Position numbers and translations under genes: made by a program. A DNA stretch of 33,623 nucleotides. It comes from a virus. The DNA lies in the IMG/VR virus record IMGVR_UViG_3300035698_011402. One strand, written 5' to 3'. A model generated the notes under the pieces. The model had not been told where the DNA came from and made no database searches. It worked only from the letters and a program-made list of their open reading frames with translations. This document shows, in pieces, positions 31,330 through 31,403 of this stretch (position 1 is its first letter; every line of letters starts with the position of its first letter).

Positions 31330-31403
31330 GTCCTGTTAGCTTAGTGGTAAAGCAGTTCTCTCTAAAAGAACGATCATGAGTTCGAAACTCATACAGGACG
31401 CCA
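31330..31403 (+). tRNA. amber suppressor tRNA, anticodon CUA (reads UAG); Gln- or Trp-like (discriminator G73, short variable arm)
   Basis: Acceptor GTCCTGT/ACAGGAC + G + CCA; D-arm GCTT-AGTGGTA-AAGC; anticodon stem GTTCT/AGAAC with loop CTCTAAA (U33, C34-U35-A36, A37); variable GATC; T-arm ATGAG-TTCGAAA-CTCAT. Confidence 0.8.

Follow-up and report, generated by a model that had tools for sequence, protein, structure and literature searches.

Results

The tRNA(CUA) Gene and Its Immediate Flanks

The window, which is the whole 33.6-kb stretch of DNA analyzed here (IMG/VR record IMGVR_UViG_3300035698_011402), carries near its 3' end a tRNA gene with the anticodon CUA, hereafter tRNA(CUA), between the genes of a major-vault-protein (MVP)-like protein and an HNH homing-endonuclease-like protein (Table 1). 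The gene encodes a canonical class-I tRNA of 71 nt plus CCA. ARAGORN listed it on the plus strand among six RNA genes of the window, placing the anticodon cta at position 33 and labeling it 'Pyl', and the Rfam model RF00005 matched 31330-31400 over model positions 1-71 with 64.3 bits (E = 6e-12; gathering score 29), full posterior confidence and no non-standard pair. The 7-bp acceptor stem GUCCUGU/ACAGGAC runs from G1-C72 to U7-A66 and is followed by the connector U8 A9; the 4-bp D stem GCUU/AAGC closes the 7-nt loop AGUGGUA, which includes G18 G19, and is followed by A26; the 5-bp anticodon stem GUUCU/AGAAC carries the 7-nt loop C32 U33 C34 U35 A36 A37 A38; and the 4-nt variable loop GAUC precedes the T arm AUGAG-UUCGAAA-CUCAU. 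The set of invariants is complete (U8, A14, G15:C48, G18G19, U33, a purine at 37, G53, U54 U55 C56, A58, and C61), and the Rfam alignment showed no decay at any stem or invariant position. An unconstrained minimum-energy fold of 31270-31490 recovered the same cloverleaf (z = -5.7 against shuffles). The initial annotation had drawn this cloverleaf (7-bp acceptor, 4-bp D stem, and 5-bp anticodon stem) and had placed CUA in a CUCUAAA loop with U33 and A37; this drawing proved right throughout, and the covariance model gave neither a shifted anticodon nor any sign of a pseudogene.

The ARAGORN label, which reflects the anticodon alone, would make the gene a pyrrolysine tRNA serving UAG-encoded pyrrolysine. 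The anticodon CUA, the loop CUCUAAA, G73, and G1-C72 all occur in tRNA-Pyl as well. However, in tRNA-Pyl the connector is a single nucleotide, the D loop is small and lacks GG, the anticodon stem has 6 bp, and the variable loop has 3 nt. In tRNA(CUA), by contrast, the connector has 2 nt, the 7-nt D loop contains GG, the variable loop has 4 nt, the T loop is normal, and the anticodon stem has 5 bp, next to which A26 and G44 cannot pair. The sizes of the open reading frames (ORFs) in the window also leave no room for pyl genes, and the probability of this reading is negligible.

On the 5' side, a GC-rich hairpin followed by a U-run ends 5 nt before the tRNA. Judged from its shape, it resembles an intrinsic terminator and would end the transcript of the upstream 839-aa gene, although it was absent from the list of a simple terminator scan. 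A second hairpin sits 19 nt downstream. A promoter scan recognized no sigma-70-like promoter upstream of tRNA(CUA). Theta ribozymes have been reported adjoining phage suppressor tRNAs (PMC10879173); here, no HDV-like (theta) ribozyme or other known RNA element was detected beside the gene up to E = 5. The encoded 3' CCA is shared by all window tRNAs and is missing from most tRNAs of related huge phages and IMG/VR loci. Another window tRNA, tRNA-Gly(UCC), has a G1·U72 pair, and A73 replaces the usual bacterial U73.

Table 1. Positions of the features discussed in the text within the window.
Feature	Position	Strand	Basis or detail
tRNA, anticodon CUA	31330..31403	+	ARAGORN; Rfam RF00005; free fold; direct reading
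Anticodon C34 U35 A36	31362-31364	+	sequence reading
Discriminator G73	31400	+	
Encoded CCA	31401-31403	+	
GC-rich hairpin, then U-run	31287..31324	+	15 pairs, 31287-31321; fold and sequence
Second hairpin, without U-run	31422..31455	+	11 pairs; fold
839-aa MVP-like protein, upstream neighbor	28754..31273	+	Pfam MVP_shoulder 2.4e-27
HNH homing-endonuclease-like gene, downstream neighbor	31490..32119	+	PHROG 2255 1.5e-26
Further HNH/NUMOD-type genes	2120-2764; 15833-16612; 27688-28371		
R2K ATP-grasp gene	10873..11688	+	PHROG 7313; TAG at 11686-11688
219-aa ORF	11695-12354		in frame with R2K, past its TAG
Stand-alone YqeY	1330-1809		PF09424
Pth2 peptidyl-tRNA hydrolase	16612-17070		PF01981
Stand-alone GatB_Yqey	23470-23970		PF02637
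Tpt1/KptA RNA 2'-phosphotransferase gene	21813-22748		in-frame TGA at 22251-22253
84-aa ORF	25359-25613		TAG-ended
tmRNA	25836-26196		112 bits; tag peptide ADTALPMAA
Other tRNAs with encoded CCA	338-411; 3104-3180; 3317-3393; 4664-4740		
tRNA with insert	2974-3092		Rfam 47.2 bits
tRNA-like gene with insert	3188-3293		28.9 bits (threshold 29)
217-aa repeat protein	32889-33542		

Gene Content of the Window

The convincing genes of the window are small, tightly packed and all on the plus strand. The 839-aa protein upstream of tRNA(CUA) carries the shoulder and repeat domains of the major vault protein, and it shares 43-45% identity with proteins of the huge phages LR756500 (462 kb) and LR756501/LR756503 (735 kb) and about 40% with IMG/VR contigs of up to 175 kb. 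A search of 5.8 billion proteins returned 5728 homologs at E <= 1e-20, the best at 52% identity; such homologs occur by the thousands in metagenomes and huge phages. Because the matches lie in huge phages and are all distant, we infer that the window comes from a novel huge phage and covers an auxiliary part of it with translation-related genes; the full genome probably spans several hundred kb, of which the window is only 33.6 kb. Neither a close relative of the window nor an ortholog of tRNA(CUA) emerged from 50,697 phage records searched with megablast and blastn, and look-ups of exact proteins likewise gave no close relative; a pattern scan of IMG/VR for its anticodon arm found no copy of the same tRNA, and a scan of JGI metagenomes gave two chance matches, neither of which was a tRNA.

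Besides the vault-like protein, the window encodes an R2K ATP-grasp protein, a polynucleotide kinase, Tpt1, and an MT-A70 methyltransferase, and its RNAs other than tRNA(CUA) comprise five tRNAs, two tRNA-like genes with inserts, and one tmRNA. Together with these tRNAs and the tmRNA, the YqeY, Pth2, and GatB_Yqey genes form a translation-related gene set; a Pth2 homolog also adjoins the CUA tRNA of one IMG/VR contig (L069). The 84-aa ORF, which has no family assignment, precedes the tmRNA, and in LR756500 a homolog with 49% identity likewise sits immediately before the tmRNA, so that the two look like a conserved gene-tmRNA pair from their arrangement. The Tpt1 gene is split by an in-frame TGA: profile positions 3-150 of PHROG 5470 align before this codon and 153-182 right after it, and an extension of about 130 aa follows. 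The LR756500 homolog is unbroken, with Lys at the TGA site, and the split gene could be a pseudogene, a sequencing error or a case of programmed UGA read-through. The tRNA gene at 2974-3092 was missed by ARAGORN and holds an insert of about 43 nt in the 5' strand of the anticodon stem; minus the insert, it has a perfect stem CGUGC/GCACG and the loop CUUAUAA of a tRNA-Ile(UAU). The insert is intron-like at a non-canonical position, and the window also encodes Tpt1 and polynucleotide kinase. The gene at 3188-3293 has an anticodon arm with an insert of about 48 nt and an acceptor stem that pairs poorly; it may represent an interrupted tRNA that is decayed or unusual. Toward the 3' end of the window, a 217-aa protein contains tandem repeats of about 19 residues (…SNGNITKHVSPNGDIYEYE…).

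Four HNH/NUMOD-type homing-endonuclease-like genes occur within 33 kb, of which two adjoin tRNA genes, one of them directly after tRNA(CUA); this suggests mobile-element traffic around tRNA loci. In a synteny test of the tRNA and HNH genes as an insertion, the relatives were too distant and shared almost none of the flanking genes. Phages often integrate into tRNA genes, and tRNA(CUA) might thus be a host gene at a prophage boundary or attachment site. Against this, same-strand genes of phage type lie on both sides (MVP-like and HNH), and no integrase lies nearby. Bacterial genomes rarely encode CUA tRNAs, and a scan of 185,579 species genomes with the D arm returned 37 tRNAs, none of them with CUA. 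A host origin is therefore very improbable.

TAG as a Stop Codon in the Window

TAG terminates 12 of the 60 plus-strand genes (20%), with 34 ended by TAA and 14 by TGA. From these TAG codons, the next in-frame TAA or TGA follows after 0, 2, 3, 5, 5, 6, 7, 10, 12, 27, 82, and 221 codons; that is, within 12 codons in 9 of 12 genes, in agreement with the earlier remark that in-frame stops soon follow the TAG-terminated ORFs. The median distance to the back-up stop was 6.5 codons after TAG versus 20 after TAA and 11.5 after TGA, a non-significant trend (p = 0.15).

Protein families also end at these codons. Residues 2-269 of the R2K protein match positions 2 to 262 of the 264 in PHROG 7313, and its homologs in jumbo phages stop at the same point. 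This TAG forms the only in-frame TAG junction in the window. For the 219-aa ORF beyond it, the sole homolog found is a 249-aa protein that stands alone behind an intergenic gap of its own, and no relative of the ORF was found in IMG/VR. Since the R2K family ends at the TAG, IMG/VR holds no detected relative and the downstream homolog stands alone, a read-through fusion of the two was rejected. The TAG-ended MT-A70 gene covers positions 1-172 of the 172 in its Pfam profile, and residues 1-80 of the TAG-ended 84-aa ORF align with the LR756500 counterpart. Read-through from this ORF into 25671-25862 was also rejected, as two TAGs would have to be passed and the product would run into the tmRNA gene.

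Coding density, taken as a crude ORF-cover measure with TGA as sense serving as control, was 0.782 under code 11 and reached 0.808 whether TAG or TGA was taken as sense; the window thus shows no TAG-specific gain. The published code-15 phage phAss-1 (PMC10607447) was used as positive control, and reading TAG as sense raised its density from 0.717 to 0.898 overall and from 0.51 to 0.93 across the late block; this strong rise indicates that the test works, and it is a test that the window fails. In phAss-1, hardly any TAG-ended ORF has a back-up stop soon after, the tRNA-rich early block included, and genuine TAG stops are therefore very rare in this phage. Within the 33.6 kb, we found no amber-containing gene, no conserved gene broken by an in-frame TAG and no read-through target; the four genes 3' of tRNA(CUA), from 31490 to 33542 and about 690 codons in total, contain no in-frame TAG, and no ORF in the window list is long enough for a release factor or an aminoacyl-tRNA synthetase. 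TAG acts as a stop and not as a sense codon across the visible 33.6 kb, and the distinctive point is that TAG stops around tRNA(CUA) are not depleted. The initial annotation had seen no stop-codon recoding in the window, which was borne out by the absent TAG-specific density gain and by the families ending at TAG stops; its wording of a genome that uses TAG as a stop holds for the 33.6 kb and goes too far as a genome-wide claim, the window being only a fragment.

These data bear on the main alternative, a two-code phage, in which late structural and lysis genes outside the window would read TAG as an amino acid, usually Gln, with tRNA(CUA) as the switch. This is the best-documented role of a CUA tRNA in phages: among code-11/15 phages, 225 of 303 carry one, at the 5' end of the recoded block and thus usually just before it, and their early block is 'dual-coded', that is, readable both ways (10.1101/2022.06.29.495998). 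Phage CUA tRNAs in TAG recoding have been described elsewhere as well (10.1101/2021.08.26.457843; PMC10607447; PMC13037316). The window would fit such an early block in that tRNA(CUA) lies near its 3' end, with the late genes, where recoding concentrates, outside the 33.6 kb. Its proteins would be nearly unchanged by read-through, since 9 of 12 extensions are of at most 12 codons, and such short extensions resemble dual coding, as does the trend of TAG-ended genes toward earlier back-up stops (p = 0.15). In contrast, TAG ends 20% of the window genes, while phAss-1 has hardly any genuine TAG stops and the standard-code relatives of recoded phages are depleted of them (10.1101/2021.08.26.457843). 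The TAG-free genes after tRNA(CUA) and the missing room for a release factor or an aminoacyl-tRNA synthetase also speak against it.

CUA tRNAs in Related Phages and Known Suppressor Systems

LR756500 and LR756501 were examined over their full length, LR756500 having been chosen by protein similarity and not by its tRNAs. Both resemble the window in having MVP-like, R2K, Pth2, Tpt1, and polynucleotide kinase genes and a CUA tRNA with the loop CUCUAAA, and the LR756500 tmRNA follows the same small upstream ORF. LR756500 (462 kb) has 26 tRNAs and a tmRNA; its single CUA tRNA (110653-110720, minus strand, 68 nt, loop CUCUAAA, Rfam 43.7 bits) has a reduced D arm. In shape it is reminiscent of tRNA-Pyl, with a one-base connector, a 3-4-bp D stem, a tiny loop, a 3-nt variable loop, and a possible 6-bp anticodon stem, yet its T loop (UUC) is normal and its discriminator is A73. 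LR756501 (735 kb) has 59 tRNAs, including two adjacent CUA tRNAs (57.8 and 63.8 bits) at 690585-690738, far from the main tRNA clusters. One of these has C1-G72 with A73, as does the tRNA of one IMG/VR locus (L070). The CUA tRNAs of both genomes differ from that of the window, with G1·U72 or C1-G72, A73, and no homology beyond the loop.

Densities under code 11 and with TAG as sense were 0.867 and 0.866 in LR756500 and 0.893 and 0.893 in LR756501; LR756500 contains only two TAG-joined ORF pairs, both apparently separate genes. Both genomes are standard-coded genome-wide. TAG ends about 5% of genes in each, so TAG stops are depleted there and undepleted (20%) in the window. In addition, a pattern scan of IMG/VR found seven further CUA tRNAs with the same loop on contigs of 59-501 kb, whose flanks mostly appear standard-coded. 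The contig with the adjoining Pth2 homolog was considered as recoded (density 0.708 to 0.797) and rejected, as its TAG-containing ORFs are adjacent genes or overlap tRNAs. CUA tRNAs thus recur in large phages without signs of recoding. Because the share of TAG stops in the window is high, the downstream genes are TAG-free, and the complete relatives with CUA tRNAs are standard-coded throughout, we regard a two-code phage as possible but unlikely.

The closest tRNA of the same subtype was found on IMGVR_UViG_3300021437_000024 and IMGVR_UViG_3300048672_000527 (L065 and L071). It shares with tRNA(CUA) G1-C72, G73, the encoded CCA, identical positions 5-26, a variable loop ending in GAUC, and a similar GC content, although only 51 of 71 positions are identical overall. 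It lies within an array of 16-18 tRNAs, whereas tRNA(CUA) stands alone behind a protein gene. No proteins shared with the window were detected in the fetched flanks of the two loci.

We also considered that tRNA(CUA) may have arisen recently by an anticodon mutation in a common phage tRNA (Trp CCA, Lys CUU, or Gln CUG, each a single base from CUA) and may persist as a passenger without selected function, either neutral or mildly harmful. A single substitution separates its loop from CUCCAAA of Trp and from CUCUUAA of Lys, and no ortholog of tRNA(CUA) was found in the collections searched. Phage tRNA sets are redundant with those of the host, and losing one sense tRNA costs little. However, the stems and invariants of tRNA(CUA) are free of decay, and CUA tRNAs recur in unrelated large phages, including both complete relatives. 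Furthermore, LR756500 and one LR756501 copy share an identical anticodon arm, UCGGU-CUCUAAA-ACCGA, despite GC contents of 24% versus 32%, which points to selective retention. We consider a passenger quite unlikely.

The Sup-CTA tRNAs of code-15 phages (crAss-like, Lak, and phAss-1, which carries three CUA tRNAs) are like that of the window in being class-I tRNAs with CUA in the loop CUCUAAA amid phage tRNAs. In contrast, many late genes of code-15 phages contain TAG in frame, and TAG almost never serves as a stop there, which is the opposite of the window, and the phAss-1 suppressors are Gln-like, with U or A as first base and G73, whereas tRNA(CUA) has G1-C72. Suppressors in standard-coded phages have also been noted: TGA suppressors occur in standard-code relatives of recoded phages (bioRxiv 10.1101/2021.08.26.457843), and phiKp24, a cultured standard-code Klebsiella jumbo phage, encodes a tRNA-Sup-TTA whose function was left open by the authors (PMC8386662). 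The latter resembles the present case as a suppressor tRNA in a standard-code jumbo phage and differs in its TTA anticodon.

Isotype and Likely Amino Acid

The initial annotation had suggested a Gln- or Trp-type identity from G73 and the short variable arm, which does not hold as stated: G1-C72 is atypical for both, Lys fits equally well, and Gln tRNAs are among the least similar. The combination of G73, a short variable loop and CUCUAAA fits Trp (loop CUCCAAA) and equally Lys (loop CUCUUAA); among the sampled tRNAs, the loop differs by one substitution from each, from that of Trp only by U instead of C at position 35, and it is also one step from class-I Tyr. The first base is U or A in nearly all sampled phage and bacterial Gln tRNAs and A in most sampled Trp tRNAs, whereas tRNA(CUA) has G1-C72; it accordingly does not conform to the bacterial tRNA-Gln type (U1-A72 or A1-U72 with G73), G73 being present but the first pair not. 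A Bacteroidales tRNA-Trp (L046) matches in G73 and in the 71-nt layout.

Two further routes to the isotype were dismissed. The D arm, TAGCTTAGTGGTAAAGC, is shared by Gly, His, Thr, Asn, Lys, Trp, Gln, and other bacterial isotypes and is therefore uninformative. By overall similarity, in a sample biased by its collection, the nearest neighbors were Thr, Lys, and other CUA tRNAs, with Gln and Glu tRNAs among the least alike, and no assignment was made.

The laboratory amber suppressors of E. coli offer a comparison. They include supE, a tRNA-Gln with CUA, and su7, a tRNA-Trp with CUA that is charged with Gln; U35 makes CUA tRNAs of this type targets of GlnRS. Like tRNA(CUA), they are one anticodon base away from a sense tRNA and have A37 A38 after CUA; however, they are laboratory-selected host mutants, whereas tRNA(CUA) is a natural phage gene with an acceptor unlike that of either parent. 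Because U35 in the CUA anticodon attracts both GlnRS and LysRS among E. coli suppressors, our best guess for the inserted residue is Gln or Lys. Efficient suppressors carry A36-A37-A38, which is also the context for MiaA modification.

Discussion

In this study, we characterized a CUA tRNA in a region of a huge phage that ends one fifth of its genes with TAG. The phage CUA suppressor is an already known kind of gene. We propose, with a probability of roughly 0.6, that tRNA(CUA) is an amber suppressor of functional type retained by a huge phage whose code, as far as visible, is the standard one, and that its effect is probably a partial and mostly harmless read-through of UAG.

First, the tRNA would have to be released from a transcript, either one that reads through the upstream hairpin or one from an unrecognized phage promoter. 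As a terminator-like hairpin lies 5 nt upstream and no promoter was found, expression is putative, and we infer it along with charging, the inserted residue, and any benefit. Since CCA is encoded, its addition would not be needed, and the A36-A37-A38 context would suit MiaA and efficient suppression. Second, one of the host synthetases that depend on U35 would charge the tRNA; GlnRS and LysRS are the likeliest, TrpRS and GluRS less so. Third, the charged tRNA would compete with release factor 1 at UAG, and the outcome would be partial read-through that adds few residues to the products of most TAG-ended genes in the window. A strong suppressor would be costly with TAG at 20% of stops, which would favor an activity that is weak or timed. 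The phage could gain by tolerating nonsense mutations, by manipulating termination in the host, or by taking an initial step toward recoding. The initial annotation had offered low-level readthrough, service to specific amber-containing genes, or action against hosts or competitors; the data favor none of these three over the others, and no amber-containing gene was found in the window.

Alternatively, tRNA(CUA) may be an efficient suppressor and an active tool in the translation take-over kit of a standard-coded phage (tmRNA, Pth2, and YqeY/GatB-like proteins), which would corrupt or retune termination at UAG-ended genes of the host or of rival phages or make timed isoforms of phage proteins with C-terminal extensions. 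We regard this as unlikely; if true, the recurrence of CUA tRNAs in both complete standard-coded relatives would mark a general trait of huge phages and not a way-station to recoding.

Phage amber suppressors have been proposed as a switch for alternative coding, and attention has gone almost entirely to recoded phages. As a suppressor whose phage retains TAG as a stop codon, tRNA(CUA) would add to a small set, joining LR756500 and LR756501. For annotation, a lone CUA tRNA should not trigger code-15 gene calling. If such phages do express their CUA tRNAs, either genome-wide UAG read-through may be tolerated and used, or suppressors may be acquired before TAG depletion, the reverse of the published order in which depletion comes first. 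Both outcomes bear on how genetic codes change.
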